Part shown: one piece after another, positions 15,666-51,091 of the stretch
How positions within the stretch are numbered: the first letter of the stretch is position 1
How the letters are laid out: each line of letters begins with the position of its first letter
DNA from: Pseudovirgaria hyperparasitica
Taxonomy: Eukaryota
Reading direction: 5' to 3' (one strand)
Assembly (NCBI GenBank): GCA_010093815.1
Contig: ML996575.1
DNA length: 64,000 nucleotides
Program-made: the position numbers and the translations under genes
Notes under the pieces: model-generated
The model's database searches: none
Told to the model about the DNA's origin: nothing
Seen by the model: the letters and a program-made list of their open reading frames with translations, nothing else

Positions 15666-18600
15666 ATGGCCCAACACAGTTCCTTCACATATCCTTACTC
15701 GCCGGATGACGCCGTAAGCATTCACCAACACCTGATCCTAATTCTCCGATTGGACTGACCCTGATTCAGTATTACGACCACAACCAACCGGGCACGTCCC
15801 CACTTCGACAGTCTCCTTGGAAGAATAGGGAGCTGCCCGGTCCAGCGTCATTCAGACACGCTGCTGGCTTAGGTCTCTGTCATGATAACAGACCTACACT
15901 TGTGACTCACGCCGTCCCGGCTGTCAACATTCATCGAGCTGGCTCTATCCCTGGACTAGAAGGTATTCGTCTCTCTCCACTATCTCCGAGAAATTCAGGA
16001 CCGCAGGTAGATCCTGTCACCAACTGGATCGAAAGCAAAGAAGAACCGTGGAGCAGTATTCGCTTTCGTACAGACACCCACTTTCCTCCCATGGGTACAA
16101 ATCTGGCTCATTACCAGAATTCCCTCCCGAATTCTAACAACTATCGTCATGGCCCTAGCTCCGTAGAGAGCAACGATACTGTACCTACGCACTCGGACTC
16201 CGGATATGGCACGGCTTATACATACCCTACTCCAGTCATGGACCAAATGAATCGGACACCGGAGATGCCCGATCTTTCCTACAAAATGGATAGTGTTTCA
16301 TTACCGCGAAGGCACTCCCACGTGCTCGAGACTGACAGGAGGAGTGATGGTCCCATCAATTCACGTGATCGATCTAGGTCAAGAACCTCGCAACGGCGCT
16401 CGGCGCCTGAAAAGTGCCTCGTGCCAGGCTGTAATGAGATTTCAAAGTGTCCCTCAGATGCCAAGTATGTCTGATGAAATCCACTTGATATTGTCGAAAG
16501 ACTGACATCGTGCTTAGAAAGCATCGTTTGAAACATGAGAAGCCTTTCCACTGTGACGTCCGTAACTGTAAACGAACCCATGGTTTCACTACAATCAACG
16601 ATCTCAACAGACACAAGAAAAGTGTGCACAAGATTGGGGGTACGACGAAGTCTTATAAGTGTGTAGCCTCACATTGTAAGAACAGAGACAAGGAATGGCC
16701 GCGCCTAGACAACTTTAAGCAGCATGTGGTCCGCATGCATCCAGACGACGACCTAGATGATATAATTAGGAGGTTCGTTCCCTTCCAATTTACACTCTTA
16801 CGGGTACTAATCCTCCAGGTCCGAATGTCGCCGCACTGGCGACCAGTCCCGGTCACTTACACCCCAACAGCTGTCCATTGCTTCCATGGACAAAAGCTCC
16901 CTGGTCGCAGGCATGGATGACATTGCAAGGCATCCTTCCATTCCCACCGGTAGTCCCTCTGCTCTCTTTTCGCCCGAGCTTGGCACTAGGAACTGGGATC
17001 CGAACGCGCCGAATCCGTTCGAAGGCACATACTCCAGTACAAGCCGTCGCACCGGCAGTACTTATCCATCATATGAAGGAGGCCAAGGGTTTGGTCACGA
17101 TTACGCAGATGTGATGAGTTACAAGGTCAGTCCTCTGAGCATGGAACCCGCTGCCACGAGTGTGGTAGCTTCTTCTGGGCTCAACACGCTGGCCGCGGCC
17201 GTGGCCGTGGCCTCGACCGTTGGGAGTGAGGCTTTAGATAAGAATGAGATCCCTGACGTGGGAAACAGGACTGGGGAGCATCTTCCAGAGCCTACGAGCA
17301 CCAGCAGTCAAGTCAGCAACAACTGCATCAGCAATGGGCACAACCCCAAGGACCCGGAGACCGCGACCCAGACAGTGGGACTGAGCCCACTCGCCAAGGC
17401 CATCGCCCAGGGCCTCATGAGCTGTAAAGACAATGACAGTCTTGCACAACGAATTCTTACAGTTTTGACTGATAATGCCATTGTCAACAACACTTCGTCT
17501 TCTCCCCCCGCAGCTCTTACGAAAATTTCCGGATTGCCATCCTCGAAGCGCTCCGTCTCCACCCCTTATCCTTCACCGTCATCTCCGATTGCCCCTTCAA
17601 CCGACTTCGACTCTGTTCGCGATGCCCTTACGACTATCCTCAAATGTTCTCCGCCGATTCCTCCCACCTCCACCGCGACGGGAAGATCATCGTTAACAAC
17701 ACCATACTCTGCCCGCAAGAATAAGCATTGCTCCCGCTGCAAGAGCCACTTCGCCCGTGCATGTGAACTGCGCAAGCACGAGCGCCGTCACCAGCGGCCT
17801 TACGGATGCACACATCCCAAATGCCACAAGAAGTTCGGCAGCAAGAGCGACTGGAAGCGCCACGAGAACAGCCAGCACTTCCAGAATGAGGGATGGCGGT
17901 GCGAGATTCGGAACGACAATCATGGTGATCCTATTAGGAGAAAGGAGGTCCCGATGCAGACGACAATACATGAACCCGTAAACGATCCCGCCGCCGTCTG
18001 CGGCCTCCTCTTCGACAAAAGATCATCTTACCTCTCTCACCTCTCTAGCATCCATCGTATTCCTGTCCCCGATCATTTCAATCCAGCCTTAATTCATGGC
18101 CTATCCTCATTCTCTCCGCCATGTCGTCTCCCGTCTCCACTACGCAACGTCCTCATCAAAACACGCATCGGTCGCAACTACCAATCAAGCTTCTGGTGCG
18201 GCTTCTGCCGTGTCATTGTGCCCCTGAACGGTCGACGAGCAGATGCCTGGGACGAGCGGTTCAACCACATTGATGCGCATTTCACAAAAGAAGGAAAGGG
18301 CATCGGGGAATGGTGGTGCGTGGAGGAGCGTCGAGTCAAGGGCCAACCCGAGAGCAATCCCAATCCCTCACCTTCTATCAAAAACGACGACAACAACAAT
18401 TTGATAACAGCGGACACTAACGACAATAAGAACGACAATAACGATAACGTGAGCGCTGCCACCAATGAAGATAGCATAGAGCCGCCCGCCACCAACGACA
18501 CCGCCTTCTCCGCCCCACCGTCTCCCACGCCCGCACTCCAGCGCAAACACAGTCGCTCTCTAGATGAGGATGACACAGACACAGAAACAGACGCAACACC

Positions 18601-18787
18601 ACGACCGAAGCGCCCGCAACGAGACGAGAGCCACGACGCAAGAGACGTGGACACGTTCTGCTGCCGCTGCAAGCGAGGCCCATTCCGGCGTCGGCTCTAC
18701 TCGAACTGCATGGACTGCGAGCATGAGTTTTGTGTCGAATGCGAGTATATCGACCACGGCGGTGCGTACGAGTATGAGATGACCTAG
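15666..18787 (+). CDS. C2H2 zinc-finger protein, 4 exons
   Basis: Exons 15666-15713, 15770-16464, 16518-16772, 16819-18787 join in frame. Fingers include CLVPGC..CPSDAKKHRLKH, FHCDVRNC..GFTTINDLNRHKKSVH, YKCVASHC..WPRLDNFKQHVVRMH, CSRC..RACELRKHERRH and YGCTHPKC..FGSKSDWKRHENSQH. Also FWCGFC..WDERFNHIDAHF and a C-terminal Cys cluster. Confidence 0.9.
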
Positions 18788-24991: not shown

Positions 24992-27900
24992 ATGCGGCTA
25001 CTACAGGGCATACTGCTGCCCGCCTTGCTCGCGGCCATAGCTAGTATGGTAGGTGGCGTGTCCGCTAAGAAGGACAAACCCTCCCTTACGCGTACCGAAT
25101 TCAAGACCGAACCTGGGAACCTTTTCTACTTCGAGGATTCTCAGGTTGTGCTTATGATAGAAGTGGAAGAGGGCAAGGTTTGGAGAACAGATAATGAGGG
25201 CGACGAATGGAACGTGGTCGACGATATCAAGAGCAGTGATAAGCCATACGCACTCCTTAAGAACCAATACGATAGCAATGTGGCTGTAGCCTTGGGCAAG
25301 CGCAAGATACACTGGATCACCTATGATAAGGGAAAATCCTGGAGACAATTCACAACAGATGAACATCCAAGTCAAGTGACGATACCCATCGCGTTTAATG
25401 CTGCGGATAACAAAAAGCTTCTCTACTCATCACTAGAAAAATGCCTTGGTACTGTGTGCATTGGAAATGTTGGTCTTAGTCCCGTCCCTTAAAGTTCGTA
25501 CCTATAGCTAATATTCTCTCTATAGACATATTATACCGATGACGGTTTCGAGAGCACAAAAATATTGATCCAGAAGCGCAAGCTATGTGAATGGGCGGTA
25601 GCGACCGATCTGATCGCTGAGCGTGGCGACATCAACGAAGACCGTATACTATGTATCGTCGAAGGGAAATATGGCTCACATTCGCCGTCTAAGTACAGAC
25701 TATTATATTCCGACAAGTGAGTAGGAAGATGTGGCGGCATGAACGGGCGCTGACAGTCCTAGCTACTTCGAGGACCAAACCGAGATGAAAATTGATGGCC
25801 AAACGATGACGGGGTTTGCCAGTATCGCAGCTGTCAAAGGCTTCCTCGTTGTCGCTGCCGCGACCCCGGGCTCTCACGAACTTGCCCTTTATACTTCAAT
25901 GGATGCGGAAACCTGGCATAAAGCAGAATTTGGGGACCACCATGTCGAAGAGAGCGCATACACAGTACTGGAATCCACGAATTACAGCATCCAAGTAGAT
26001 GTGCAGACTGCAGACTTCACGCCTATGGGTGTGCTATTCTCTAGCAATTCCGAGGGACGATTTTTCACGAACAATGTCGAGCACACAAACCGTAATGAAC
26101 GAGGCTTCGTTGACTTCGAGAAAGTTTCCAATATACAAGGAGTCATAATAGTCAACGTTGTCAAGAATTACAAAGATTTACAAGGAATTGGGGGCTTCTT
26201 TGGTGAAGAAAAGCAGCTAATAACACAGCTTAGTTTTGATGATGGCCGGACATTCCATGATCTCAAATACAAGGACAAGGCGCTTCATCTTCACTCCGTC
26301 ACGGATCTCGCGAACAGCGGCAGGGTATTCTCCAGCCCGGCCCCTGGTCTAATCATGGGGGTTGGTAATACCGGCGACTCCCTGAAACCTTACAAAGACG
26401 GCGACCTTTACGTGTCTGACGACGGTGGTCTTACCTGGAACAAAGCTCTAGAAGAAGCCCATAAATACGAATTCGGTGACCAAGGATCTGTTCTGGTGGC
26501 TGTTTTCGACGAGGGCCCGACTAAAGAGATCCGATACTCTTTGAAACATGGCAAGGATGAGTGGCGTACACTTGAACTTGAGAATGAAATGAGAGCTGTG
26601 GAACTCACAACCAATACCGATTCGACAAGCTTGCGCTTTATTCTTATTGGGACAGAAGGATCTGGTAAGAAGAAACAGTGGGTCAGCTATACCATCAATT
26701 TCGATGACATGCACGAGCGAGATTGTGGCGAGAAAGATTTCGAAACTTGGCACGCTCGCGTCGACGAGGATGGGAACGCCATGTGTATCATGGGTCGAAA
26801 GCAATCCTTCCACAGGCGCAAGGCGGACGCCGATTGCTTCGTAAAGGAGTTTGAGAAGCCTGAACTAGAATGGGACATATGCGAGTGTACTGAAGCTGAT
26901 TACGAGTGCGACGCTGGTTTTACACCAGAATGGAGTGGTGAAGGTGATAAGAAGGAAAAGAAATGCGTCGTTGCCGGACGGCTGGATCCGCCTGATGATG
27001 CTTGCCAAGGCGACGATGAAACATTCATGGGAAGCTCTGGGTGGCGCAAGATTCCCGGAAACCAATGCAAAGGTGGTACCAAAAAAGATAAAGAGATGGA
27101 GCACGAATGCAGCGAGACCAAAAATCCTCCCGGGAGCGGCAAGATTTCAACTGAGATTACATCTTTCCCCGAAGACAACCTTGCCGAGTACTATTATCTT
27201 GAGAGGAACGGCCGACAAGGCGACGATGAGACTGTCGTTATGCGAACCACGGACAACACTGTCTATATTACTCGCGACCATGGAAAGACCTGGGGGCGGC
27301 CCAAGGCCATTGGTGACGACGAAATCGTCGCGATATACCCTCACCAATACTTCAATGACGTTGTGTATTTCATTACAGCGAGCAAAAAGGTCTATTACTC
27401 AAAGGATCGCTGCAAGACAATTCATGACTTCGAAGCTCCGTCAGGTCCCAACAGGGCCGGCCTTCAGATTCTCCAATTCCATCCAAATAAAGACGGCTGG
27501 CTCATCTGGACTGGTCAGGACAAAACGGGGACGCCTCAAGCATGGAAAACACAGAGAGATGGCTTGGAATGGCATGCTCTAGCACGTGCCGTGAGCAAAT
27601 GTCAATTCATGTTCAGTGACGTTGGACATGACGTGGATGAACAGCTTGTATACTGCGAGCAGCACACTAACGAAGATCCGAGTGCGCCGCTCCAGCTTGT
27701 CTCGAGCAAAGACTGGTTTGCGAACAAGGACGTCGTTTTCGATGATGTTGTCAGCTTCGCAACCATGTCGGAGTTCATAGTCGTTGCGTCCAAAACGGAA
27801 GACCGCAAAAACCTCAAATTGGACGCCAGCATTGATGGCAAGAACTTCGCTGATGCTCAGTTCCCGCCCAAATTTACCGTCGAGCATCAACAAGCCTACA

Positions 27901-29555
27901 CTGTACTTGACAGCTCTACTCACTCTGTATTCCTTCACGTTACCGTCAATGCACACAGTAACTCTGAATATGGAACCATAATCAAAAGTAACAGTAACGG
28001 CACGTCCTATGTCCTGAGCGTTAATGAGGTCAATCGAAACGAAGAGGGCTACGTAGACTTTGAAAAAATGCAAGGCCTCGAAGGAGTGGCTATCATCAAC
28101 GTCGTCCAGAACAAAGAACAAGTCGACAACGGTGCCGGGAAAAAGAAGCGCACACTTATTACCCATAACGATGGCGCTGACTGGGCTCTTTTGTCTAATG
28201 TGAAGGACGCTAAGGGGGAGAAGAACCTTTGCAATGATAACGGATGTTCCCTTCACCTCCACGGATACACCGAGCGCTCTGATCCTCGAGCTACATTTTC
28301 GTCTGCATCCGCAGTCGGTCTCATGATGGGTGTGGGTAATGTGGGTACCGAGCTTAGCAGTCCGAGTGACGCCAATACCTTTCTGACCCAAGACGGAGGC
28401 GTTACATGGAATCAAGTTAAGTCGGGTCCTTATATGTGGGAATATGGAGACCAGGGATCGATCATTGTTCTCGTGAAGAAGAACGAAGCAACAGATCACG
28501 TTCTATACAGTACTGATGAGGGCGACTCCTGGACGGAATACCCCTTCACCAGTTCCGATTCTTGGAATATCGAGCTCATCACTACGGTACCTAGTGATAC
28601 GTCGATGAATTTTCTCTTGTGGGGTAAACAAGTCAAGGGTAAAAACCGTGGTAAGCTTGGTACGGTGAATCTTGACTTTTCCGGCCTCTTCGATCGTAAA
28701 TGTGAGCTTGATGACGACAATCCTCTGGCGGGCGACTACGAATTTTGGACCCCAAAGCATCCGTCTCAAGACACTGAATGCTTGTTTGGGCACATTGCCA
28801 AATACCATCGAAAGAAGCGTGGTGAACTGTGTTACAATGGTGAACGTCGATTCGACGATGTGCACGAACAAGAGAAGTGTGAATGTACTCGTCGCGACTG
28901 GGAATGGTAAGTCATAGTTTAGATGTCTCACCCAACAGAACTGATACATTTGAGTAGTGATTATAACTACGAACGCCAGAACGATGGTTCATGCCTACTT
29001 GTGGAAGGTTTGTCGCCATCTGATCCCAAGGACGTGTGTCAAGACAAGGATGTGGTTGAGTATCATACCGTCACCGGCTATCGTAAAGTGCCGATCTCGA
29101 CCTGTGAAGGTGGCCGGGATTTACGGGCAGAGACCCTACCGTGCCCAGGCCATGAAGAAGAGTACAACGAGAAGCATGGCACATCTGGCTTCGTTATCTT
29201 CCTCGCGATAGTTCTCCCAATTACAGCAGCCGCTGGTGTCGGGTACTGGGTATACCAGAATTGGGACGGCAAGTTTGGCCGCATCCGACTGGGCGACGGC
29301 TATAGTTCGTTCGACAGCAACAGTCCATGGATATCATGGCCCATCGCGGCCGTCTCCGGCCTCATTGCCGTTCTCGCTACGATCCCATTACTGGTCGGCA
29401 GTCTGTGGCGAAGTGCAAGCAGCAGATTCGGTGGCGGCCGTGGCTACGGAAGCCGGACGTACACGAGTAGAGCCTCGTTTGGCCGCGGCGACTATGCGAT
29501 CGTGGATCCGGACGAAGGTGAACTGCTTGGTGATGACAGTGACGAGGACGTCTAG
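24992..29555 (+). CDS. VPS10: Vacuolar sorting receptor Vps10/Pep1 (about 1469 aa), 4 exons
   Basis: Exons 24992-25468, 25526-25716, 25763-28906, 28958-29555. Signal peptide, two VPS10 propellers with BNR repeats (S.DGG.TW; GFVDFEK/GYVDFEK; YEFGDQGS/WEYGDQGS), Cys-rich 10CC regions (GWRKIPGNQCKGG, GYRKVPISTCEGG), one TM helix and an acidic tail. Confidence 0.97.
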
Positions 29556-30547
29556 TAGTCGGTGAATCTGGGTTTTTTTTGGGAAGCACAGGCATAGGAT
29601 GGGTAGAACACAAGGTTGAACCCAATTTCTGAGAGGGGAGGCTCGGTGCCTTCCCTTTCAAAGTGTAGTTTTAGTTCCTTTTTTGAGCGCTGCGCAATCT
29701 GCTTCTCGAATGTCTTTCGTGCCATGAAACTATGTGTGTGTGCGTGTGTGTCAGCTTGGTGCATGACTGCTGTACTGTTTGATCATTCACAATGTCTAGC
29801 TAATTAGCCTTGACATTGTCAAATGGTCTTCCCCCCCTTAGTGCACTGTTCTATCTACCATCATCTCGAGATCACATTCGCGAAACCTCTTATTGCACCG
29901 GTGTTAATACAATAAGCTAGCATCGCTGACTATTCCCCACAGTTATATAGATGGCTGTGCCATTCATTCATGTCACATTCTAGTCCCAACTCCATCCTAC
30001 GAAAACTTCATAAGACCATGTATACATACCAGATCATATATGAATCGTCACAGAGTAGTTCACTACCTACGCAAACACAGACATGAACACGCGCAAACAA
30101 CATCTGCACAGACTTTTGCTTGCTTGATGCAACCTCGCTCAATGAGGGTTCGGTCAATTGGCGATCTATGAGACACTGTACGATTACATTGGATCTGGTA
30201 CGAGGCATTGGAAAGGCGTTTACAAGCAGTTCTTATGGGTTGGATGGACTCTTCGGTGGTTGGGGACTGGGTGGAGATTGTAGGTTGGTAGCAGCGCTGT
30301 GATGATAGTGGTTCTGATATTGTGGGTTTGCAGGAGTCGTGAGTTTAGAGTTTGGTATGGAAGAGCTAGATGTATAAGGAGCTATTTCACCACTTTCATG
30401 TAAAAAAAAATAGAGATCTCTTGGCTATGCGGCTCAGTGAGGCCTAGAAAATTTGGGATATCTGTTAAAATCGTACACTCTTCAAATCTGCGTACACTCT
30501 TAAAAACTGCGCGACACATGCTACATCCATGAACCATCCTCTTACAA

Positions 30548-31431
30548 TTACACCTGTCTTACATCCTTCAGCTCTACAGCATGCATATCCAATCTTTCAG
30601 AGCTCATGCCCAAGGCCGTCTCTTTGTCCCTGGCGCTAAACTTGCCAGTTCTACAGAGTTTACTTTCAGTGACCCACACTCGGAGCCATATCAGGTACTT
30701 CACAATTATGAAGATGACGCATGCACCCACAAGTATTCCAATGATGTATCCTGCAGTGATGCCGCTGCCATGCTCTTGTATGTCAAGGAAATCGTAAACA
30801 TAGAACCCTTGCGTAGCGTGGGTCAAGTATGCGAGACCGAGATAGAGCGCGAGCAGGATGATGATTGGGATGAGGTGCCACCATGGAAGAGGGGACGTTC
30901 GCGGGATTATGATCTCAAGCAGCGCATAGACGGCGTTCAGGGCGTGTTGGGAGGTATTTGACCACGTTGCGAAAGGGGTCTCGAAGGAGCTGTATAAAAG
31001 GGTCCAGAAGACAACTATGGCCACTTTTTAGGAGACAGTCACATATGCGCTCACCATGCTGCAGACTTACTTGTAACGATCCACGGGTACACCGTAATGG
31101 TGCTGTACAGTACCTCGTGGAGTGTCTGTAAGACGACTCCCCAGTCTTTCAGCGCTTCCCTTCCCTTGAGCCAGTATGTGCCGGTATGTATCGCTGCGAA
31201 GAGCCCGTATCCCGCGATCCCCCAGTAGGTCAATACTGTAAAGTATGAGAAATTCCTGCCTGCTTTGCGGTCACCGTGCGTGCCGTCCCAGCCAAGAGTG
31301 AAAAAGATTGTGAACCAAGCATAGAGGGCGAACACTGCTCGAAATGCGAAAAGAACGAGAGGGGACAGTAACCACGAGGTCACCCATCGCGACGTAGGAT
31401 CGAAAGGGCGCGATGCAAGAGAGAGGCGCAT
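30548..31431 (-). CDS. FAR-17a/AIG1-like multi-pass membrane protein, 2 exons
   Basis: Exons 31431-31071 and 31014-30548. Motifs FSYFTVLTYWG, PWIVTIVFW, WSNTSQHALN, YLGLAYLTHATQGFYVYDFLD. The Thr and His pair matches the AIG1/ADTRP-like pattern. Confidence 0.75.
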
Positions 31432-32336
31432 TCTCAACGGACGGCGCAGAGATAACAGTTTGCTGGAGGAGGAAGTGTGTTATGCCATGTGGGAGTAGGT
31501 TTCAGTTGTTTGCTGCTGCGGGAATTTCTTTGAAAACCGGTTCAACGCCGGGGGCTCTATATTTGGGAAATTGGCCGCACATGCAATGATCGCTTGGGGC
31601 CCCGAACGTACCTAAACAGGAGATCTGGCCAGTACAGAGAGTCGTCACTCGTGAAGCGTTTGCGACGAGCCCGTATTGACGATTGACTATCATTTCTACA
31701 ATACACTAGGGCACGCTACGTGGATGGATCCGGATGCTGAAGCTTGGCTCGTTCCTGTCAGGCGTGTCCCGCTTTTTGGGCGCGAACGCCAGATCGCGTC
31801 GGGCCGAAAGGGACGATTCCCTTGACTTATTGCACTTTCTCTCGACGTCGAGCGTCCTCCGCCCTGCATATGACAATAGTAGATCAAACCCACCCTTACT
31901 CCACGCCGCTCATTATGTTTGTGCTATACGGTATCTGAGCATGGCAGAGCATGAAGCCGTTTTTGAAGGGTGGAACGAGCGAATCGTGCATACCGAGATC
32001 TAGGGATCGCAATTCCTTTCGTTGATCGAACCGAATGTGCGGAGTAGAAGGTGGTCCTATTAGCATGATAATTAGTCATGCAGCTGTTCTTCCTTGTTGA
32101 TTGTTGCCTAGAATAGAGATGGGCGGTAGACCTCAAGGATTGATAACTGACCGGCCGCACCGATCCATCGAGGGCGCTTTCAGCTTGCAGCCTTTAAGAG
32201 AGCCCTTCGTCAAGGCTCACACTTCAAATACCACTCATCAGAGACTCTCTTTAGTTTCCATCTTGTTGACCGCACTCTTCTGAGTCCACCGGTCAAACAA
32301 AACGCAACTGTTGCTGAGACTCTCGGCGTGCATGCC

Positions 32337-32867
32337 ATGCCTCCTTCACGCCAACCCACCAGCCGATCAGATGCGGGAAGATCGCTTCGAGAGAGACTCA
32401 CTCAGCCTTTGCAGAGCATCGCCTCCAAACAGCGTGCCCCCTCGCCACAAAGATACCCCTGGAAAATCGGCATTTACAATGGGGTGACCTGGCCAAAATT
32501 GAAGGCTCACCTCGAAACCTTGTTCCCCGGCACAGAGTTCAAGGAGAGAACGGTAATCGAGCGCGCTCTGGTGAAGGAGAGGCTATGGTGGCTAACGGTC
32601 AATCCTACAGAAGGGAGACTATTGGATAGTCAAAGTTCCAGCACCATCCACAACAGTGAGTGCACTTCCCTTGCATTGCCAACGTACAAAGATCTCGATT
32701 GACGTTTCCAGGATCGCAAAAACGAGATACTACAGCTGAGAGATGATAATCGCGCTAGAGAACCATCGCTTACGCCCGAGCCCGGAATGCATATCAAAGT
32801 TCCAGTCGAGGGAATGGCAAATGACCCATCTTCGGCCCCCGAGGGTGGGGCAGGTGGTGCGCCATAG
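32337..32867 (+). CDS. Small protein of unknown function (138 aa), 3 exons; first gene of the trio
   Basis: Exons 32337-32552, 32611-32655, 32712-32867, both introns phase 0 (GTAATC..CTAAC..CAG and GTGAGT..TTGAC..CAG). Core: YPWKIGIYNGVTWPKLKAHLETLFPGTEFKERTKGDYWIVKVPAPSTTDRKNEILQLRD. Confidence 0.7.
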
Positions 32868-33146
32868 GCTGAAAGCGCAGCTCAAGTGGAGTATGTCACA
32901 AGGATGATGCTGCGTAATCGTTCCTCCGAGCGAAGGGTGGCTAAATCATGGGTGCACCAAAAAGTCGGACATGTGTACAGCCACACACAACGCATTGTTG
33001 AAGCAAGACAACGTAAGGCTGACACTGTAAATTTGTTCAAAAGAATAACTACATCGCGATCGTTCATATCTCCTCTAGCATAACTTTCCTTAAGTAGTAA
33101 ATTCTATGCAAGCACAACAACCATTGGTCTTCACTATTTGTTCAAA

Positions 33147-35018
33147 ATGTTCTTGGTTGACCATCAGCTTGCGGAGTCGATCCGAGGAGCCCACAAGTAT
33201 CCACAGAACATCATTACAAGAACGTTAGATGCATGTGCCTGGACATTAACAAGCGCAACCACTTCACTAGACAAAGCGACACCTTCGTTGTTTGTAAAAC
33301 GCGAAGAAGAGGTAGACCTGACGTTCCGCGATATAGACCCTCAGGAAGGTATTTAGAACAATGTCCACTATGTCACAAGCACACAATCTGACTCGAATCC
33401 TCAGGCCTCAAAAAGACCAACATTCATCTGGAGGGCAAAGAATTGGAATGGCTCGGCGTACAGTCGAGAATGAATGAAGAGTGCCCACGCAAGCCTCCGT
33501 TTATATATGCTCAGAGGAGGGATCCGAAATGTCGTTTTATGTACGTCTCAAGAAACATGCGTGCGAATTACCAGCAAAGCACTAATCTTTAGCAGCTACA
33601 TATACGGTATTCACAGCAGAGCGGCTCTAAAGGTGTCCAGAAGCATGCTCACAAACGTTCTCTCGTATCATGAGGTCATGCCAGCGTACTTGGACTTTAT
33701 TTTAGCATTCGGATTGAAGTACGAACCAGATGATCTCAAATTCAGTGCCTTCATGGAGCAGACTACTTTATCAGCACCACGTGGACCTGTCACAACAGAG
33801 CTAGGCCGAAGCGGACGGCAGTTCCAGCTATGTTACAATCTACGGACCGCGACCAAGAAATCTGAGGAGAACGGCTTGGGTAATCATCAGGAATGGTCCA
33901 TCCAACCAGCTGCAATCCACCATCAGTTTGATGTAATCGAAGGCACTACCCTCTGGATAGTCACAAAAGGGGGTCGCGATTTATACCACCGTTATAAGGA
34001 TTTCTCTGCATCAAGCGTTCGGCCAAGTGGCTTGGCTTTCACATCACCAGAAGAGTGCCTGCGATCGAGCCTCTCAACACATCTAATGTTCTGTCGTTGG
34101 GCTACGGAGGGTTGGCGATGGTTCTTGAAGTGGCTTGAAATGACTGTTGAGGAAGAGGTAGGGCAAAGTACTCGCAGACATTATCACTCTGTTAATGTGA
34201 CGTTAGACTCAGCTCGCCGGCTATAGCCCATCGAAGAATTACAGATCCGAGCACCTTATGCGGTTGCATCGGCATTTAGACAAAGCCGCAGGAATCGTCA
34301 TTGCATTGGAGACGAATGTGGAGATCTTGACCTTACTTCGCGAATACTATTGTAAGCTGGTCAGCAGACATGATTATCCATCAGCCTTGAAAAATGCCTG
34401 CAGCGACGACTTGCATTGCTTCGATACCAAACTTGGTGTCATGGTGCATAATTCCAAGATGGAACTGTTCAGGGCAAAATCACTCGTGGAAATCGTTAAA
34501 GATCGAAAAGAATTGGTATGATTGACGATCTGGAAGCCACACTTGTCACACATACTAACGCACTCCAAGATAGTGCAACACTTGCAGACTCAGGCTTCTG
34601 AGAGAATAGAAGCTGTCAGCAATCGTATGGAACGGGAAGCTATTGCAGTCAGAATGTTGACAATTGTCTTTGGAGTATATCTACCGGGCAGTTTCGTATC
34701 GGTCAGTGTTACCACCATTACTATGCTTTCTCTGATGGTTCTAATGTGAATCAGGCCTTCTTCTCCACCGACGTTGTTCATTACTCCGCCAATGATAATG
34801 AGAAGGTGGTGTTCTCATCAATAGCACTGGACAGATGGCTTCAGCTGACAGTTCCTTTGACTGCGCTCACTTTGATATTCGTCTATTGGTCACACTCTTT
34901 CGCGAACAAGTCAGCGATGTTTAACAAGTTCATGCTCGCAAATGCTCGGGGTATAGCACGCTCGGTTGGCTCATTTGCTCTTCGAAAACGTGCCTCGACA
35001 GACTCAACGATGGTTTAA
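33147..35018 (+). CDS. Fungal CorA-like protein with two C-terminal TM helices (about 534 aa), 6 exons
   Basis: Exons 33147-33348, 33405-33540, 33596-34157, 34207-34515, 34570-34701, 34755-35018 total 1605 nt in frame. Motifs DPKCRFIYI, MLTNVLSYHEVMPAYLDFILAFG, FQLCYNLR, WSIQPAAIHHQFD, a long stalk helix, TM1 VRMLTIVFGVYLPGSFVSAFFSTD and TM2 WLQLTVPLTALTLIFVYW. Confidence 0.82.
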
Positions 35019-35957
35019 GGGATGTAGGAGACTAATATACAAATGTACATATATATTTACGATACCGCACCAAACATCAGGAGTTGTCTAAATGTGTTAA
35101 AAGAAATGAGTCGCCAGCACTTGCCGCCGCTATACAACTGTTTTGAGATACACATGCTTGTCTACGATTTGGAGCCATGCAAATGGTTCTAAGATGATTT
35201 GAGTCTCAGCGCGAGAAGATGTCGCAGTGAACATCAAGATGCTCGTCGGCAGTAATGCCTCATTCTAGCATTGCATCGATCGGGGCTTGCGGCATGTGGC
35301 GTACTAGCATAGCCTCAAGATCACACATGAAACCTTGTCAGCAGCACTTCCCAGCAAAGTGTCATTGTGGAGAGGCCATCTCTCGCACACCAATGACTGC
35401 GTGTGTCCACAGGCCAGGTTGTAGTAGATTCGACTTACTAGCCTCTCGTAAAAAAAGAATGCCAAGGGTACGAAGCAAGAGATGGAAGTCGGGGTGACGT
35501 GCATGTGAAGCTCGCCCGGTCAGAATCGTAGACGTGTTAGGGCCGGGCAGCGTGCTGTGATAAAAGGAAGGAGGAAAGAGCTGGGTGCTTTGCGAGCTCA
35601 CCGCTTACCATGCAAAATCCGAGGGTATGCTTGATTTATGGTAATTTACAATCTTATCAGTCTTCTACCACCTGCAAAGCTACTATGCAGATGCAGACTA
35701 AGCGGGGCTTCTCGCAGCCTTGTCTGCGTGGATGTACCCTCATCGTACCTCTGGAAAGGCAGCAGGATTTCCATATACCTCTTAGATCCTTCTGTCGTTC
35801 ACTTTTCATCCGTTTGAATCGGCGATTATCTAGCGTATCTCTTTCATGAACTCCATATTCACTCTTGAAGGCCCGTCTACGGGTTTAACCGTCCGATCGG
35901 CCCCACGAGGCTGAGCCTCGCTCAATTTGCAGCGGTTTCACTTTGACAAAGATCAAG

Positions 35958-38900
35958 ATGCAGTTCGCTACGGCACATACGCCCCATACATTTCCCAGCA
36001 TTGTCGATACGTTCAAGAGAAAGCTCGAAAGCTTGAGGACGAAGGCATACTGTGGTCGACAATATATACTCGTTGATCGGCTCCAAGACTGGCTTAACAC
36101 GAGAGAAGAATCTCAGGAGCATACCAATATCAGGAGACTGCTAAGTGTTGCCTTCTCAGATATATATCAAAAGGTGGATTCTCGCCAGCTATCGCAATCC
36201 TACATAGTCTTTGCTATTCTCATGGAGCACGACTATGGGCATCATATTGACAAATTCCTCGATGCCAATATAACGGACAGTCGCCTCAGTGAAGATCTGA
36301 GTATGGCTGAATTGCAGCGGAATCTTGGTGGCGAAGCGCCGCAAATTATCGACGCTTTTTACAATAGCAGATGGGCCTTCTGTCCGGCTCGTTTTGAGCT
36401 TGATTCGCATACAATAGTGAGGTCTCGCGATCAAATCATACCCTACTGCTCTCGCGAAAGAATTAATGAGGGCGGTACCGCAGATGTCTGGCAAGTGACC
36501 ATCAAAGAAGATATGCTGTCAAGCGATATGAAAGATCGGATGACTCAGTTCCGATTCGAATGTGCTGGGCATGGCATAGTAAGTGGAATCGAAGTAAGTG
36601 GTATTTCTCCGCTCATCGCCAACAGTGTTACCGGCTCGCCATCAAGGGCTACGCAGAGAAAGATTATGAAGTGTTTAATTGGGAAAGAGAAGCGTTCAAT
36701 GTACTGCGAGGTCAAGCAGGAATGGTCCAATGCTTCGGCTCATATGAGATCGATGAGATCAACCCTGAATATCGCAGAGGCCAGGACCTCCGCAACTTTG
36801 CTCTCATCCTCGAGTTCGGAGAACGCGATCTCATGAACTACCTCGAAGATACATCTCAAATTCCCCCTATCTTGCCGGAAGAGATATTTTCGTTCTGGAA
36901 TGAGTTGTTCAAGGTCTCCGATGCTCTCAGTCAGTTTCACCATACAAAGTACCGAAACGCTGATACTAGCACATACTTATCTGGGTATGTCTTACGATAG
37001 TGATAGAGAAAGGTATTGACATCCATCTACAGGTGGCATTCTGATGTCAAACCAGAAAACATCTTAAGAGTTAATGGTGAATTCAAGTTGGCTGACTTTG
37101 GATTCTCAAAGTTTAGGAAATTCGAAAAGAAAGAGGTAGTTCCTTCGGAGTATATTTATGGAGGCACATTTGCATACGGTACAGATTATTGGCCTAGAAA
37201 AGAACATGTTCTGATTGGACTGTAGGAGCACCTGAATGCGAAGCCATGAGACAAAATCGTGGCACCACTACCAACGTTACTCAGACCATTGACACGTGGT
37301 CTTTTGGCTGTGTCCTATCGGAAGCTGCGACATGGCTTGCTCTTGGCTACCAGGGACTAGAACAGTACCAAGAGTTCCGTATTGGCGTTGTACGTGACCT
37401 TCGCCGCCGACACGCACCAGAAGATAGGAGTAAACGGGGTATTCAGATCCCCAGATCGGACAGCTCGTTCCATGACGGCTATAGGGTTTTACCTCAGATC
37501 CGTCTCTGGCACGATTATGTTCGCAACAGCACCAGGCGTACTGATACCATCACAGACCGTGTCTTAACATTAGTAGAGGATCACCTGTTGTTGGAGGATC
37601 CTCACGCACGTTATTCCTCAAACCAGCTTTCGGATGCACTCAAGATTGCAGAGTGGGAGGCCAGACAGGATGTTCAAGCTCACTTCGCTGACCAAAGGTT
37701 GCGTCAAATTGCACCAGAGCTCCAGCAGCGGCTTGTGACTATTGAGCAGACGGCAGCTGCCCGCCAAGGTACTTCCAATAGCAACCTGACCGTCATGTCT
37801 AAAGATACCACTCCTCTTGAAAGCGAAAAGACCGCTAGAGACAAAGGTATCATTTTGGGGCCACTTCCTACCAGGAACTATCGAAAATCGCAGCGTGCGG
37901 GCAAGACAGAATGGATAGAGAAGAACCCACTGTCTAGGACTGCGCACAGGAATCCTGAAACGATGATGAATACAATACCTTTGGCCCATTTGACTGAAAG
38001 TCCCAACACCTATGATGTGGACATAGATGAGCCTGGTCCATCAGATCGATGGGAAAGTCGTAATGTGCCACTACCGGCACCACTAAAAATCAGGACTAAG
38101 GAAACCTATGCGCACAAGGAGAATGGAGGTACATACGGTCGTGGCCTTACGAGTCCCCAGACTTTGGAGCTCTCTCCGCATCCTCATATGTCAAGTGTTC
38201 CTTCCATGGTGACACACCCAGACTATCCTGGGTTACACAATACACATGAGATACGTTCTAACCCACATCCGAACTTTGCCACTCCTCAGGTGCTTATCAA
38301 TATACTAAATACTTCCGCATCTAGGCCTGAGGATACAAGGGACCCGGGGGGGCAAATTCACCCAGCCACCCCGCCCAACTCACCAGAGACCAAGATCAAG
38401 AAATACGAGCAGAAGGGATTTGACCCGATGGATTCACTGATCTCATCCAGGAGTGAGCCGCAAGAAGGCCCGTCAGATACTGCAATATTGTTGAACGAGG
38501 AAAAAATACTATTACAGTCCCCGGTGCCAATAGAAGAGGAACCGTCTAACGTCAGCATTCAAATAGATGAATATGCCACCGTTACCGACGTTAGAAACAA
38601 ACACCCAGAACTGGACATCTTCATCGTTCGCCGCGAGCTTGAACGTAAGAATCCAGGACTTATTCGATCCTGGTTGATAAATTCTCCGCGGAACAAGAGG
38701 CTAAGCTACTTTGTGTCGAATAGGGACATTGTAAGTAGAAGATCTGTCGCGTGACTCGCCAAGGATTCTGACTCCTATGTCGCAGGTATTTGTGGTTGAC
38801 AACGCGCCGACCATGCGACCATGGTGGGCTCTCGTATCTTTTGTAGTGGAGACTATGGCGATGAATCTCACTGGCCTGGATAAAGATGGCTTGGATCTTC

Positions 38901-39582
38901 TTTTCACTGGAACGGACAAATTTAGACTCAAGGGCAAGAAGGCAGACGCACCAAGCAAATTCCTAAAGAATATTCGCGAAGCCACCCCAAATGATCGCTC
39001 TATGAACACGGACATGGCCGCATCGCTCGGCACTATCTTTGACGAGTATATCAGAACACCCCAAGAAAAGGGTATGACGCTTCTTGTGTTCACTGACGGC
39101 TTGTGGACCGGAGGTGCCGAAGATGATGCCGTCGAGAAAGCCTTGGTGAAGTTTATCACACGCACAAAGGATTACAAGATGGATCGTCAAATGAAGCGCC
39201 GCTTCAGTATAGAGTTCATATACTTTGGACACGACCAAAAAGCGATAGATCGCCTGCGGGCCCTGGACGATGAGATCAAGACAAAACACGAACTCCCGTA
39301 AGTCTTCCATCCTAGTCATCATGTAGCCAGCCGCCCGACTGACAAATGTTCAGCGATATCGTCGACCACGAACCCTGGACCGGAGATGTCGATAAAATGA
39401 TCACCGGTAGCTTCCTTGAATCGAAAGATGTTCAGAAACCCGATGCCGGACTTTCGCCTCCCGGACTTTCGAGAGTGGACAGTAACACCCCTTCAATGAA
39501 TTCCCTCTCCTCTCCGACACAGCCCAGCAAGCGATCTTCCTTTTTCGGAAATAGGAAGGGTAAAAGTGCTGAAACGAGGTGA
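35958..39582 (+). CDS. Ser/Thr protein kinase fused to a C-terminal vWA domain (about 1123 aa), 6 exons
   Basis: Exons 35958-36578, 36626-36984, 37033-37178, 37226-38730, 38786-39297, 39354-39582 total 3372 nt in frame. Kinase motifs EGGTADV, LAIK, WERE, WHSDVKPENIL, LADFG, YGAPE, DTWSFGCV. vWA motifs VFVVDNAPTM, DKDGLDL.F, LLVFTDGLW, SIEFIYFG..LRALDD. The start codon is uncertain. Confidence 0.88.
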
Positions 39583-40689: not shown

Positions 40690-42416
40690 TTACACCCTGT
40701 CCCCAAAATACCCCTTCTCCAACACCACCGGCCCAGGCGACGTCCCCACAGGCGTCGAATACCGCGAACTCCCCTCCGACAACCGCACCCCGTCCAACCG
40801 CACGACCACCACCCCTTCCTTCTCACTCCCGTCATCCCCTTCTGGCCCTACTACATCCCACCCTTGATCCTGCTCCTCCTGCTCCTGCTCACTCCTCAGC
40901 GCCGGATGCGAACGCATGTCATCGCCCGCGTGTCTACCAAGACCGGCATTCATCTCCACATCCCCTTCGCGCTCCGCATACCCGAGTCCGGTCCCGGCCC
41001 CGGTCCCATCCCCCACCCTCACCGTCCACCGCCCCGTAAGTTGCGAGAAGAACTCACATGTGCGGAACGCGTTTCGGAAGCCGCCGTGGACGCGCACGGG
41101 CGGGATCATGGGTGGGCCGGAAGCGGGGCCGAGGGATGTGATGCGATCATTATCGTCATCATCGTCATTGTTGTTGTTATGGTGGTGGTTGTAGTGGTTG
41201 TTGTTTGATTTGTCGGCCGAGGGCGCGGTGGCAGCGGCGACGATGGTGATGATGCGGGATCTGAAGGAGGCGTAGGCGCGCGTGAGGAGGGAGTTGCGCA
41301 GGAAGGTTTTGATGTAGGGGGCGCAGGCGACGGCGATGGCGAGGTGGTTTTCGATGGTGGAGCAGAGCATTAACTGGCCGTATTGGACTGTTGGGGTGGG
41401 AGAGTTAGTATGGGGGTAAAAGAGGTACGGGGAGACATACAGGCCATGTCGCCAGTGGATTTTATTTCGTACATGATCCAGACGCGCAGCGCGGAGGCGA
41501 TGAGGACGCTATTGTAGGAAATCTAAGTTAGTATGGGACTACTATGCAAGCATCCAGGGAAGAATAGGGCAACTCACACAAGCCCCAGCCCAAACACGAA
41601 GTACAACCCAACCTTACTCGCCCTAGAAACCTGGAGATTCCATGTAAACACCACCGGCATCGCATACAGCACTGTATCAATGCCCATCATCAGGAACCCA
41701 TTCGAGATCGAAAAGTCCATAAATCTGATATTCGAACATGTGCCAGGCACGGTGGGGTCGAAGATGCGGGCCATGGGCACGCACTGGGCGAGTACGACGA
41801 TGATGGAGGAGGCGCCGAAGCCGACGGAGACAAAGGTCATGAAGTGGATGAAGTAGTGTGCGGGTGTGCTCATGGTGAGGTCGCGGTAGAATTGCAGGAG
41901 GGAGAGCTTGACGAGCATGTTGCAGGAGAGATAGAAGATGTTTGTGACGAGGACGGCCTGTTTGGGTATGTTAGTGGAAATATGGTATGCGCGGGGAGAG
42001 GGTGGAGGAGTACTGACCTGGCGCATGCGGATACCATTTAGGAATTCTAGATCGCTTTCGTGGGTACCGAGTCCGAATGATGTGCCTGAGACGTCGATAT
42101 CAGTGGTGAATTAGAAGATGACAAAAGTGATCTTACTGATTATGAGGCCAAGAGACATTGCAATTCCAAAGACCTTCAACAGTTTATTAGCTATTGCAAC
42201 AGATCACGTAGTTGTCGCCCATACAGTTGCCGCGAGAATAAACCCTGAAGCAGTCAGCGAAGTGGACTATCGAAGCTGGTCTATTATCATACAATCATGT
42301 TGCTTATAAGTCCCACTCAAGATTTTCCGTTGGAGTAACCTGACCGTCACAGCGCCAAATGACAGGACAGACATGGCGACACTAACGCCAATGACAGCAT
42401 TCTGCCTGGGCAACAT
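40690..42416 (-). CDS. PTH11-like (fungal rhodopsin-domain) 7-TM receptor without CFEM, multi-exon
   Basis: ATG at 42416 (MLPRQNAVIGVSVAMSVLSFGAVTVRL..HDWFILAA). Motifs FGLGTH, LVKLSLLQFYRDL, LAQCVPMARIFDP..PGTC, DTVLYAMPV..WNLQ..K..L..VFGLG and CSTIENHLAIAVACAP. Several short introns. Confidence 0.85.
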
Positions 42417-43884: not shown

Positions 43885-45215
43885 TCATCCATTCCTGCGT
43901 TTGCATTGCGCAGCGACTACACTGATATCGTCAAGTTTGCCTGACCAGCTCGATCAGTCCCAAGTCTTGATCTCTGCGACAAATGATGAAACTCACCTCC
44001 TTCAATAGACAGACCTTCCTCAACAGCCTTCTCCATGTACGGACTCTCAGCAAATGGATCTTCGGCAATCTTCCTGGCCTCTTTGACCAATTCTTCTGCA
44101 ACGTAATGCATGCCTTGCGCGTGGCTCTCTTCGCCAGGGTCCTTTCCTCTCTCTTTCGCGACCTCGCCATTGTTCCACTTGCGCAGGCTTTCCAGCACGA
44201 AGTCGACAATCTCATGTTCCCAGAGGTTGTCCACTACGCCGTCGGACATGGCAATGACAACATCATCTTCTTCAAGCTCCATGCGATTCATGACCGCAAT
44301 CTCAGTGGGTGTGTCTGGGCTATTCGTGCCGAGTTGACGCGGGCAATCGAACCAGTGCCACTGCTCTTTCGTCTTGAACAACGTGTTTCCATCCTTTGGC
44401 CTGATTACCAGAACCTGCGAGTCCCCAAGCTGCGTCACATATAATATAGGCTTTGAAGGATCGTCCTTGTCCGCGCCCAGTAACGCACTACAAGCGGTAG
44501 TCGTGCCTTGCCATTCATTCGTAGCCTTCTTTGTATTCTCATACGCCTCCTGCAGGTATCGCACCGGGTTCGGCTCTGCGTCTCTCCCATACTGATCTTT
44601 CTCTGCCTCCAGCGCCCAGAAGTGAAGTATCAGGCGGGCCCATAGTCTGGAAGAGCAAAACTTGTTAGTTGGTAATCCCGTGCAACGTACGACCTTTTTG
44701 GGGCTTCGCCAGCCGCTGTGCCTCACTCACGCTGCATGCCCCTTTTCTCGGTGCGCCCAAGCCCCGACGCCATCGTTTGCACAGATGAAATTATCAGACA
44801 CTAGCACTGCGTCGTCTCCGTTTGTGATACCGCGTATCATCTCGCCATCGTAGTATGAGCGCCGGTCTCGGCTGCGGTGGTGCGTGCTGAGCGGGTCCGA
44901 AAAGCTGCCGCTGGGGTAGGATAGAAAGGGCGGAGGAAAAGGTCGAGACGGGCGCTTTGCAAAGAGTGCGTACCCGGCTTCGAAGTAGAAGGGAGCCTTT
45001 GACTTCAGAGCTTCCTCAGAAGGTGCCGGAGTAGTGGTGCCACCTGTAAGCCTCCGGTCCGAGTTGGACTGCTTCTCGCTGCTATAACATCGCGCAGATA
45101 GCCTTGCAGGTAGTCTGATGCGGGAGGACAAGGTCGATAGGCAACGGCGCGTCACGTTTGAAGTCTGCAAGAAAGCGCCGGGCTGCGAAGGTGCTGTTGA
45201 TCGAAATATGTACAT
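43885..45215 (-). CDS. PTC7: PTC7-type PP2C (PPM) phosphatase, probably mitochondrial, 3 exons
   Basis: Exons 45215-44731, 44646-43997, 43940-43885. Motifs NGDDA, ANDGVGAW, GTTT, QLGDS, EQWHWFDCPRQLGTNS, SDGVVDNLW, SPY, GGKLDDISVV. R/S-rich N-terminus resembles a presequence. Confidence 0.88.
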
Positions 45216-48201: not shown

Positions 48202-51091
48202 CTAGAGACTGGTAAAGACAAGCTTGGGATTTTCGCCGACGACCAAAGTTTTGATCTTTGGTAAGAGCTCTAGTATCCTAAATGGCTTTGCTATCGTATC
48301 ATCTGCCCCAGCCTCCCTCGCGCGTGCAACTTGTTCGCCTCTCGCATTGGCGCTGACTACGATGATTGGCACATGTCTTTTGATCTCGCCTGTTCGCTGA
48401 TACTCGCGAATCTTGCGTGTACAGGTTAAGCCATCCATCACCGGCATCTCTACGTCCATCAGGATTACTGTGAGACTGAGGGGTGGCTCCGATTGCGCTG
48501 CCGAATCCCAGATTTCGGTACGACGAATATATTCCAAGGCTTCGGCACCATGATTGCTGATGTGGACTTTACAGCCTGCCTTGCGCAGCTGTTGCGAGAG
48601 TACTTTTTGCTGTTCAGAACTGTCAGCGTGTGTGGATTATGCTATGCAGACTTACATTGACTATATTGTCTTCAACAAGTAATACCGCGTAACTATCCTT
48701 GACAGGCTCCACTTTGATGTCTGTGATATTGGGCGGAAGACGTGATTGACTAAGTGTACGACTCCTAGTTCTCAGTATAGCGGGTCTCTCGGGCGGAGGC
48801 GCTGTCCGAGTTGCGATAAAGAATGCAAATGTCGTACCAACGCCTGGCTCGGATCGGATCCCTATGGCTCCGCCTTGTAGTTCGGCGAGCTTCTTGGAGA
48901 TGAAAAGACCCAAGCCACTACCACCGTAAGTAATATGCGTTTTTGGCGTAGCTTGTGCGAATTTGTTAAACAGTATGCTTTGCTCTGCTAGTGATAGCCC
49001 GCAACCAGTGTCAGAGCATTCCATCCGAACAAACACTCTCCTCCCGGAGCCCCAGTCCTCTCCGGTGAGGAAATCGCCTACCGTGTGAGTTATGGGAACA
49101 TACGGAAAGCCATCGCCAGCTGGAGATGAAAATTTACTCGCGGAAGCGCTCAATCTGACATGGATCTTTCGTGTAGGCCTGTTGCGTGTAAATTTGATTG
49201 CATTCGTTAGAAGGTTAATAAGAATCTGCAGAACCCGAGACGGATCTATCATCACCCAGTCGGCTTCCAGCTCGTGAATGGATGGATCCTTGTCGGTTGT
49301 CAATTCGATACCGTTGTTCTTGCATTCAACTTCAAACATGTTCATGGCATCTCTCACAATGGTTGCTGGTTTTGAACGAACTGGAGTAATCGCAAGAAGA
49401 TTCGAGTCCATCTTGGACAAGGTTAAGACGTCATCAATCACGCGTTTCTGATGGAGCGAGCACGCTGTGATGGTGTTGAGTGAATCCAGGCATAGCTTTA
49501 TCTCGCTATCAATTTGTTCGCGCTCGGTACCTGTCATCGATCGAGACACCAGTGAAAGCATGCTCTTCAAAGTATCGATAGTAGAGTCTGCACACTGAAG
49601 GACGGCCGAAAGTGGGTTCCGCATCTCGTCTGATGCTCAAGTCAGTCTTTTCAGTGCCTATGCGACGCTTGAAAACGTACGTGAGGTCATGTCAATAAAA
49701 GCTTCGTGTTTTCGCTTCTCCTCCAGTGCTTCTTCGACTCGGCTTTTCAGTATATCTTCAGCCCACTTGAACCGAGAGATATCGGTCATAGTGCCGAAGA
49801 TTGACATGATGTTGCCGTCATTGTCCAGCTCTGGAAAAGCTTGACTTTCTCCCCAAACTTGGCGCGGAACACTGTCGCCAAGATCCCATGTTCGATTAAA
49901 TCGTACTTGCACACGGGTCATGACCTTCTCACTTTCAAGTGTCTCCCACTGCTTTCTGAACAGGGGCAGGTCTTCCTCAAATACTGCTGCTCGCCAATTG
50001 ATGTTCTGTACGTCATCCCCAAGAAGGTGCTGGTGCCCAGTAAACTCGTAGGCAAAGTTGTTGCAATACATCAATTGTCTTGTAGAGTCCAGAATATAAA
50101 TACCCATTGGTGCCAGACTTGCGAAGCGCGTGAATCGGTGTTCACTTTTCCGCAGGCGCTCGAGAGCTTCAGCCCTTTTGACAGCCTCGTCCTGCACACG
50201 CTTCTGTGCATTAATGTCAACGGTATTTCCAGCCACACTTACCAGATTTCCCATCTCATCCATGATAGGGACACAGGCGGACAGCACCCAAGTCACATCA
50301 TCGACTCCTGGATCATCCTCACTCGGAGGGCGATAGTTGATACCCTTCCATCTCATCTCGAACGTAATGCTATGGCCTTGAACCAATTTGTTCCATTGTG
50401 CAATAACCAAATCTCTGTCTGGGGGATAGACGAGATCCATAAACGAGTAATCAGTGTGGAGGTCTTCAAGCTTTGGATGTAGGCTAAGACGATACCAGGA
50501 GTCCTAGAAGTATGTCAGACTGGGATTAGCTGAGACGCTGGTTCAGCTCACGTTCGCACGAATCAGAGTACCCTCAGGGGAGTATTCAAAAGTCCCAACA
50601 TCACTCATCTCCATCATCGTGTAAAGGCTGGCTAGTCGTTGGTCATAACGTTTTATGTCTTGCAATCTGTGCTTAGCATCTTCGACCGAAAGACTATCGG
50701 GCCCTACGCCAACTGCCAGCCCAAATTCTATCTTTTTGTGAGATTGGGGCACCTGTCTCAGAGCACGTATGCATCTCCAACGCCCGCGGATATTGAAAGC
50801 GCCCCAAGTCGCGTCTGCGAAATCATACTCTTTTCTCCAGAGCGCGACTGTTTGACACCAGGCACGAAATCTGTGACTCGCCTCTTCATCCTTGTTTATT
50901 GTATCTGCTATCTTGTCCTGTCGGAATGCGGTATTGCCAGATACGATCCTGAAAGGGACTATTGCAGTAAGGTCAATTGGCACGAAGAAAGTTGGTCTAG
51001 GGTCTGCGTCAAGGAAGTCGTGCAGAGAAGGTAGCGCGTCTTGTTCCAAAACGTGATCCGTGATTCCTATAGATGTCGAGTCTGCGACCAT
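48202..51091 (-). CDS. Hybrid sensor histidine kinase (PAS/PAC repeats-HisKA-HATPase-receiver), multi-exon
   Basis: Spliced H-box FIDMTS(H)EMRNPLSA, N-box QILINLLTNAIKF, DTGCG, YGGSGLGLFIS, GVGTTF. Receiver motifs LLVEDN, ILMDVEMPVMDG, SANAR, KPF. Upstream PAS-like segments (DLVYPPDR, FEMRW). Confidence 0.93.

Follow-up and report, generated by a model that had tools for sequence, protein, structure and literature searches.

The locus and its transcripts

We analysed a stretch of 64,000 nucleotides, hereafter the window, of contig ML996575.1 of Pseudovirgaria hyperparasitica (assembly GCA_010093815.1; the contig is labelled C11 in our analysis). On its plus strand a gene for a CorA-like protein with two transmembrane segments (TM1 and TM2) is the middle member of a conserved trio that encodes a small protein, the CorA-like protein and a kinase-vWA protein:

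32337..32867, + strand: small protein gene, 138 aa, exons 32337-32552, 32611-32655 and 32712-32867 (record P0224; both introns skipped)
32868..33146, + strand: spacer of ~280 nt between the small and CorA-like genes, with six ATGs, bridged by one spliced contig per run
33147..35018, + strand: CorA-like gene, 534 aa, two TMs, Pfam PF26616 (from gene model, splice joints, homolog labels and fold); exons 33147-33348, 33405-33540, 33596-34157, 34207-34515, 34570-34701 and 34755-35018
35958..39582, + strand: Ser/Thr kinase-vWA gene, 1123 aa, six exons, 35958-36578, 36626-36984, 37033-37178, 37226-38730, 38786-39297 and 39354-39582 (5/5 introns skipped in run contigs)

Spliced contigs came from two public runs of one sample, which are not registered as RNA and whose contigs are spliced nonetheless. 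All five introns of the CorA-like gene, each 49-56 nt long, are skipped in the contigs of both runs. These contigs fix the acceptor of intron 2 (33541-33595), ruling out one placed 3 nt earlier, and they fix intron 5 at 34702-34754, where it interrupts YLPGSFVSAFFSTD after VS; each of three alternative in-frame splice choices for intron 5 would still end in FFSTD. The 534-aa product is identical to the annotated record P0064, labelled a hypothetical protein of Pseudovirgaria hyperparasitica by NCBI and CorA-like by UniRef. Its hydropathy is moderate, with 19-residue peaks of 1.77 in TM1 and 1.34 in TM2.

The contigs that bridge the spacer span 32712-33346, from the last exon of the small gene into exon 1 of the CorA-like gene. 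In another fungus, an intron-free contig (L032) holds both complete frames 296 nt apart, and two further intron-free contigs (L033 and L034) begin ~45 nt ahead of the CorA-like ATG. A two-gene or overlapping transcript of the small and CorA-like genes fits these contigs, which are not proof of it. Run X2 also contains antisense introns, seen as CT..AC-ended skips, at 35312-35438 between the CorA-like and kinase genes and at 36915-36977 inside kinase exon 2.

The small protein has a conserved core of ~65 aa, with a predicted beta-alpha-beta-beta-alpha order over residues 40-103. It returned no Pfam match, no usable Atlas match and no Foldseek match at E 0.001; its best VIA Z was 5.9, among ACT/ferredoxin-like folds, and no family was assigned. 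In six of nine sequences (including P0212-P0218), five of them closely related, the core ends in a PS[VL][ST]PEP-like tail, PSLTPEP in the window, which is a possible phosphorylation site. The kinase-vWA protein comprises an N-terminal domain, a kinase with intact LAIK, HSDVKPEN, DFG and APE, a low-complexity linker and a vWA-like domain. The window copy matches vWA-TerF-like at E 0.003, and its homologs match Pkinase and VWA. The C-termini of these kinases vary, being vWA, or ankyrin in P0011 and L052.

Elsewhere in the window, a protein kinase ORF lies near a HET-domain ORF on the plus strand (55595-59329), perhaps as one kinase-HET gene or as a pair. Three long open frames have no Pfam match at E 0.001: 9611-13609 (1333 aa), 16811-18784 (658 aa) and 52007-54499 (831 aa). 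Ordinary neighbours are a Vps10/sortilin gene (24992-29555), a fungal rhodopsin-domain protein (41577-42110), a PP2C phosphatase (43917-44726) and a PAS histidine kinase (48626-50503).

A CorA fold with STD in place of GMN

The structure was predicted with AlphaFold2 from a 42-sequence alignment for P0001, the protein of a second copy of the gene on contig C50, which differs from the window protein at 15 of 534 residues. The model has a mean pLDDT of 84 and a pTM of 0.76. It shows an alpha/beta N-terminal domain, an unbroken helix from 366 to 449 that forms the stalk and TM1, and a second helix starting at 469. This is the architecture of the CorA/MIT structural superfamily, an alpha/beta domain with a stalk helix running into TM1 and then TM2, and it bears out the large soluble N-terminus, stalk helix and two C-terminal TMs described in the sequence-only reading. 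That reading had proposed a structure prediction followed by Foldseek against CorA and ZntB as a check, and a CorA fold was indeed obtained by both Foldseek and VIA-align. Foldseek returned 69 matches at E <=0.001, the best at 5e-10, and the displayed rows were all CorA structures. Among the 48,161 chains searched with VIA-align, the top nine were all CorA-superfamily chains (CorA, CmaX, ZntB and Mrs2; Z 12-18), led by M. jannaschii CorA (4ev6; Z 17.8, rmsd 7.3, 306 aligned) and T. maritima CorA (5jrw; Z 17.2, rmsd 5.1, 327 aligned), with CmaX at Z 16.5 and E. coli CorA, ZntB and Mrs2 also present. The first unrelated chain followed at Z 11.9 with an rmsd of 22.6. Identity in the matches to CorA-superfamily chains is 7-14%. 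A PDB sequence search with the 42-sequence profile gave four weak endoplasmin matches only (E 0.7-1.6), which were discarded. At residues 442-460, the stretch that holds the motif described below, the pLDDT is below 50, so the model does not give the filter geometry.

The feature that sets the protein apart lies at the outer end of TM1:

34764..34772, + strand: codons of S451-T452-D453, at the GMN site (from profile alignments and family frequencies)

In CorA-type channels, the glycine carbonyls and asparagine side chains of GMN form rings that hold Mg2+ (PMC11919701, PMC3629940). GMN is reported to be needed for permeation: its disruption impairs Mrs2, and N443A blocks Mrs2 uptake (PMC11919701). 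That GMN is lost at the end of TM1, with YLPGSFVSAFFSTD standing in its place, had been noticed from the sequence; the string is present in the spliced gene, and two profile alignments now show the exact register. In these alignments, of profiles against two GMN-bearing proteins from the same genome, S451-T452-D453 falls ungapped onto G-M-N when counted from the TM1 proline, the second alignment being short and not significant by itself. There is no G-x-N anywhere in the 534 residues. The observed feature is confirmed as real and, judged by its sequence, the protein fails the GxN test that defines Mg2+ channels.

The same triplet is found throughout the family. Of 209 proteins, 140 have rows that span the motif, the remaining 69 being fragments or models without that stretch; the first 62 proteins behind this count were found by exon 3 alone, which lacks the motif. 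The triplet is STD in 117 of the 140 rows, GTD in eight and another in 15, and it is GMN in none, with residue frequencies of 92% for S, 95% for T and 90% for D. We relied on this count because the one from 80 metagenome loci (55 STD, no GMN) is circular, one of the search patterns having contained the motif. STD is present in both deep clades of a FastTree tree of 79 rows. The 140-row count, taken together with a dN/dS of 0.05-0.12, shows, as far as sequences can tell, a family-wide change and not decay.

The rest of TM1 resembles that of CorA-type channels, in that the family has the P-x-T-F pattern followed by a polar Thr/Ser stripe. T434, T437, T444 and T448 are each found in 95-96% of 79 aligned proteins; the window copy departs from this stripe with F437, S444 and A448. 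Matched by spacing from the TM1 proline, the stripe resembles T295, T299 and T305 of T. maritima CorA, pore threonines required for transport (PMC3629940). Strong conservation also extends to the cytosolic residues R184, S185, H222, D225, W233, H275, W281 and W286.

Compared with CorA, CmaX, ZntB, Mrs2 and Alr1 (2-TM-GxN superfamily, PF01544; 4ev6, 4i0u, 7nh9, 5n9y, 8ts1), the protein shares the fold of the whole chain, the two C-terminal TMs, the TM1 P-x-T-F, the Thr stripe and the spacing from proline to motif. It differs in having STD for GxN, a larger cytosolic domain, conserved kinase and small-protein neighbours, and no match to PF01544 or TIGR00383.

The family, its linked partners and copies in the genome

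A search with exon 3 found 62 homologs among 427 candidates, and all 62 are marked PF26616. By their labels we take them to be from Dothideomycetes, Eurotiomycetes, Leotiomycetes, Sordariomycetes and lichen fungi. A profile search returned 919 cluster representatives at E <=1e-30, 150 of which were listed, and in the nearest Atlas clusters PF26616 is found on 58-84% of members, all eukaryotic and mostly Ascomycota. Membership in PF26616 rests on these precomputed marks of homologs (including P0001) and on the UniRef label, not on a direct model score. P0064 has no match to PF01544 or TIGR00383 above the curated cut-off; 14 of the 62 homologs bear a precomputed PF01544 mark. The CorA-like protein sits in a known Pfam family, labelled as a CorA-like transporter domain, and that label includes neither the STD signature nor the linked partners. 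The sequence-only reading had recognised neither STD as a signature shared by this whole family nor the gene as part of a conserved trio. Our literature search, with subscription papers and bioRxiv supplements outside its scope, found nothing on the PF26616 family or the trio; a text match to 'cora' in PMC8195603 was merely 'coral'. In prokaryote genomes, 45 pattern matches yielded no confirmed relatives, which, being pattern-based, is weak evidence of absence. PADLOC gave no match for the CorA-like or small protein, and its matches for the kinase were to generic kinase domains.

The CorA-like gene evolves slowly. In seven of ten close-locus pairs its dN/dS is 0.05-0.12, two of the seven having a dS of about 2 or more, and the other three pairs are saturated; for pieces of the kinase, dN/dS is 0.10-0.23 in six pairs. 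The branch of the window copy is long, at 1.14 against a median of 0.58 in the 79-row tree.

A metagenome scan confirmed 180 relatives, and the best 80 loci, which form 57 groups at 90% DNA identity, were used to examine linkage. Sixteen groups have 5 kb or more of flank on each side; among these, the kinase lies within 5 kb in 15, the small gene in 13 and both in 13. L109, a long-flank group, has neither partner, and no small gene was detectable in three. Where 3 kb downstream was available, a kinase was present in 19 of 22 groups, co-oriented and downstream in 17 and divergent and upstream in two. With at least 1.2 kb upstream, the small gene precedes the CorA-like gene in 25 of 29. As a control, the kinase profile had no matches in 167 kb of more distant flank. 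The trio is also reflected in gene models that merge the CorA-like protein and the kinase, in three of the 62 homologs and in a further three representatives. The small protein opens one of these merged models, and in one the kinase is followed by ankyrin repeats; a separate model joins a HET domain to a CorA-like protein. We take the merged models as adjacency rather than true fusions.

The other neighbours of the trio change from locus to locus. This was seen in 76 of 133 long ORFs from 21 long loci, a set that omits overlapping frames and the bulk of the CorA-like and kinase ORFs. HET-domain genes occur at four of the 21 loci, a raw count with no background rate for comparison, and a CHAT protease and a long WD40 protein at one each. 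A RING-finger gene lies downstream of the CorA-like gene at two loci without a kinase (L070:3446-4243 and L109:14550-15437). By analogy with the vWA-PP2C-kinase triad of bacteria, a PP2C gene that lies 4 kb beyond the kinase in the window was considered as a fourth member and rejected, since no PP2C is found among the 76 flank ORFs of the 21 long loci.

PF01544 matches 13 places in the genome, and the CorA-like locus at 33147-35018 is not among them. Nine distinct genes of this set end TM1 in GMN and one in SMQ, and two have no motif in the stretch examined. The nine GMN genes and the SMQ gene (L019-L031) exceed the usual fungal CorA-type set of Alr1, Mnr2, Mrs2 and Lpe10. Among the GMN-bearing genes are one of FGMN and one of WGMN type, marks of the Alr and Mnr clades (PMC4945025). 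Two GMN-less paralogs of the CorA-like gene were found:

C13:151213-154761: paralog with STD, a kinase downstream and the same intron position in TM1
C3:1051164-1055997: paralog with ETN and a divergent kinase

Among its paralogs, the kinase of the window is closest to the one at the C13 locus. No small gene was detected beside either paralog with the small-gene profiles.

A rearranged copy of window 29141-36161, 98% identical and with internal deletions, is on the 25-kb contig C50 (C50:1476-6893; L010 and L011). In it the small and CorA-like genes are intact and the kinase is reduced to a stub. C50 letters occur in the run contigs, and the copy is apparently expressed. Its CorA-like protein, P0001, is 97-99% identical to the window protein, with 15 non-synonymous and 10 synonymous codon differences. 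Fragments of exons 3-4, 720 bp long, are found at C35:61155-61870 and C42:20778-21493, and the small contigs C50, C35 and C42 are mosaics of shared segments. Of 22 differences between runs and window, 13 match the C50 copy, one matches the C35 fragment and eight match neither; A-to-I editing was rejected as their source, given the 13 C50 letters and the one from C35. Four full-depth run differences lie in kinase exon 1 (window 36079-36512), three of which change a residue, with none listed elsewhere in the kinase, and four A>G differences lie in and after the small gene (window 32517-32893). Both sets are absent from the C50 copy where it covers them, and they may reflect another strain, another copy or an assembly error.

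What the CorA-like protein may do

The reading we favour, tentatively and at a little short of an even chance, is that the protein is a putative kinase-controlled cation pore with an acidic mouth, through which a stress or defence module would act. Given how strongly the outer-mouth triplet and the Thr stripe of TM1 are constrained, the CorA-fold subunit probably still assembles a pentameric pore, with GMN rewritten as STD. By general channel chemistry, an acidic Asp ring would favour Ca2+ or non-selective cation flux. With Asp replacing the Asn ring, five carboxylates would stand at the outer mouth and could make the pore less selective or Ca2+-permeable. The CorA-like protein would be the membrane output of the three-gene module and the kinase-vWA protein its switch, with the small protein serving as a dedicated adaptor or as a brake; once triggered, the pore would admit cations, leading to a stress signal or to cell killing. 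The pentamer, the conductance, the ion preference, the direction of control and the defence role of the module are all things that we infer. A gated pore with altered selectivity is a plausible role. By analogy, the protein could also be a membrane-depolarising effector, and the low dN/dS is a misfit for a fast-evolving recognition gene. Evidence against the favoured reading includes this slow evolution, F437 and A448 and the long branch of the window copy, the locus without partners (L109), the expressed-looking C50 copy with only a kinase stub, and the merely occasional occurrence of HET/NLR-type neighbours.

Pointers to a role in defence or cell death are the movable cassette, the paralogous cassettes, the variable kinase C-termini and two precedents, a CRISPR CorA effector and clustered fungal cell-death genes (PMC12881547). 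The first is the type III CRISPR CorA effector of Bacteroides fragilis, thought to work by depolarization (PMC10600005, PMC11229360). Like the protein described here, it is a CorA-family membrane protein found with dedicated neighbours, in its case redeployed as a regulated effector. Unlike it, the effector is bacterial and activated by SAM-AMP from Cas10, and its GxN status is not stated in the portions of those two papers available to us. The CorA-like locus has neither Cas10 nor SAM-AMP-degrading neighbours; its gene is eukaryotic and spliced, with a small protein and a kinase-vWA protein beside it. The second precedent, the RIPK3-MLKL pathway of necroptosis and the two- or three-gene cell-death clusters of fungi (PMC12881547), shares with the trio the logic of a kinase-switched membrane cation channel and the clustering of genes. 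The trio differs in that no HeLo/4HB, gasdermin, NLR or amyloid motif was seen in it, and in that its putative pore is of CorA fold. CorA is not mentioned in the available text of that review.

A fungal CorA-domain gene has been tied to vegetative incompatibility, namely mimpvic32 of Morchella importuna, which has divergent alleles and was identified by bulk segregant analysis (PMC8940278). It is an incompatibility candidate, for which the available text of PMC8940278 does not show a causal role. We rejected it as a member of the STD family and place it in another subfamily, since it keeps GMN (supplementary figure 1 of PMC8940278); it is also ~770 aa long, and no kinase is annotated in the supplementary workbook as available (PMC8940278). 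For the CorA-like gene, a dN/dS of 0.05-0.12, which was measured between close loci and not in a population sample, speaks against the divergence expected of a het or vic gene. Values this low show nothing of the diversification by which het genes are typically marked, and evolution at such a slow pace counts against a polymorphic het determinant.

A bolder form of the favoured reading is doubtful. Here the trio would be a regulated cell-death or immune cassette widespread in filamentous ascomycetes, in which the kinase opens an Asp-ring CorA-fold pore, Ca2+-permeable or non-selective, and the small protein, whose frame comes first on a common or overlapping transcript, keeps the pore closed; the scheme would be RIPK3-MLKL-like, made from the scaffold of a magnesium channel, with the layout of a toxin-antitoxin operon.

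Among the rivals, it is rather unlikely that the CorA-like protein is a sensor or scaffold which conducts barely or not at all, the kinase-vWA protein being the output. The linkage data would fit this equally well, the conserved cytosolic residues could bind a ligand or partner, the window copy has Phe at a TM1 Thr conserved at 96%, and disruption of GMN impairs Mrs2 (PMC11919701). However, a mere anchor would have no need of S-T-D at 90-95% or of a Thr stripe at 95-96%.

We consider it unlikely that the protein is a homeostatic transporter of another ion, such as Ca2+, Mn2+, Zn2+ or a monovalent one, with its own kinase and regulatory subunit and no link to defence or cell death. Strong purifying selection and transcripts in ordinary run contigs agree with such a role, and vWA domains bind divalent cations. 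To our knowledge, on the other side, fungal Alr1, Mnr2 and Mrs2 do not need a linked kinase, and the shifting neighbours, the several divergent paralogous cassettes in one genome and the variable kinase C-termini are unlike housekeeping transporters. Members of the CorA superfamily have been reported to switch substrate through TM1 residues (PMC3629940), which also favours a transporter of this kind.

Import of Mg2+ in the manner of Alr1, with STD standing in for GMN, is highly improbable. The fold and TM1 pattern are retained and 38 of 42 aligned members touch PF01544 at E <=0.1, but P0064 scores nothing against PF01544 or TIGR00383, and GMN is reported to be essential, N443A blocking uptake by Mrs2 (PMC11919701). 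The claim of the sequence-only reading that this is not a housekeeping Mg2+ importer is upheld by the nine genes of the same genome that keep the motif, FGMN and WGMN types included. A decaying CorA copy with chance neighbours is close to refuted: the long terminal branch, the family residues lost from the window copy and the broken or partial copies on C35, C42 and C50 would suit it, but the frame is intact with 5/5 introns spliced, STD is conserved across ascomycete classes, and a kinase is linked in 15 of 16 groups against no matches in the 167-kb control flank.

GMN is regarded as a universal and essential signature of CorA-type channels. In the large fungal family described here, a different motif has become fixed under purifying selection, which makes the STD family a natural experiment on how ion choice depends on the filter. 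Fungal CorA-like genes have been treated simply as Mg2+ transporters (PMC10694956, PMC9040847). Since genes of this kind are tallied as magnesium transporters in genome papers, some of those assignments may be mistaken; the CorA expansions of PMC10694956 are a possible example, if they belong to the STD family. The triggers and executioners of most fungal cell-death clusters are unknown, and should the trio prove to be a kinase-gated pore, it would represent a new class of effector for fungal signalling or cell death. The value of the finding lies in a filter rewritten across a whole family and in the conserved three-gene unit to which it belongs.
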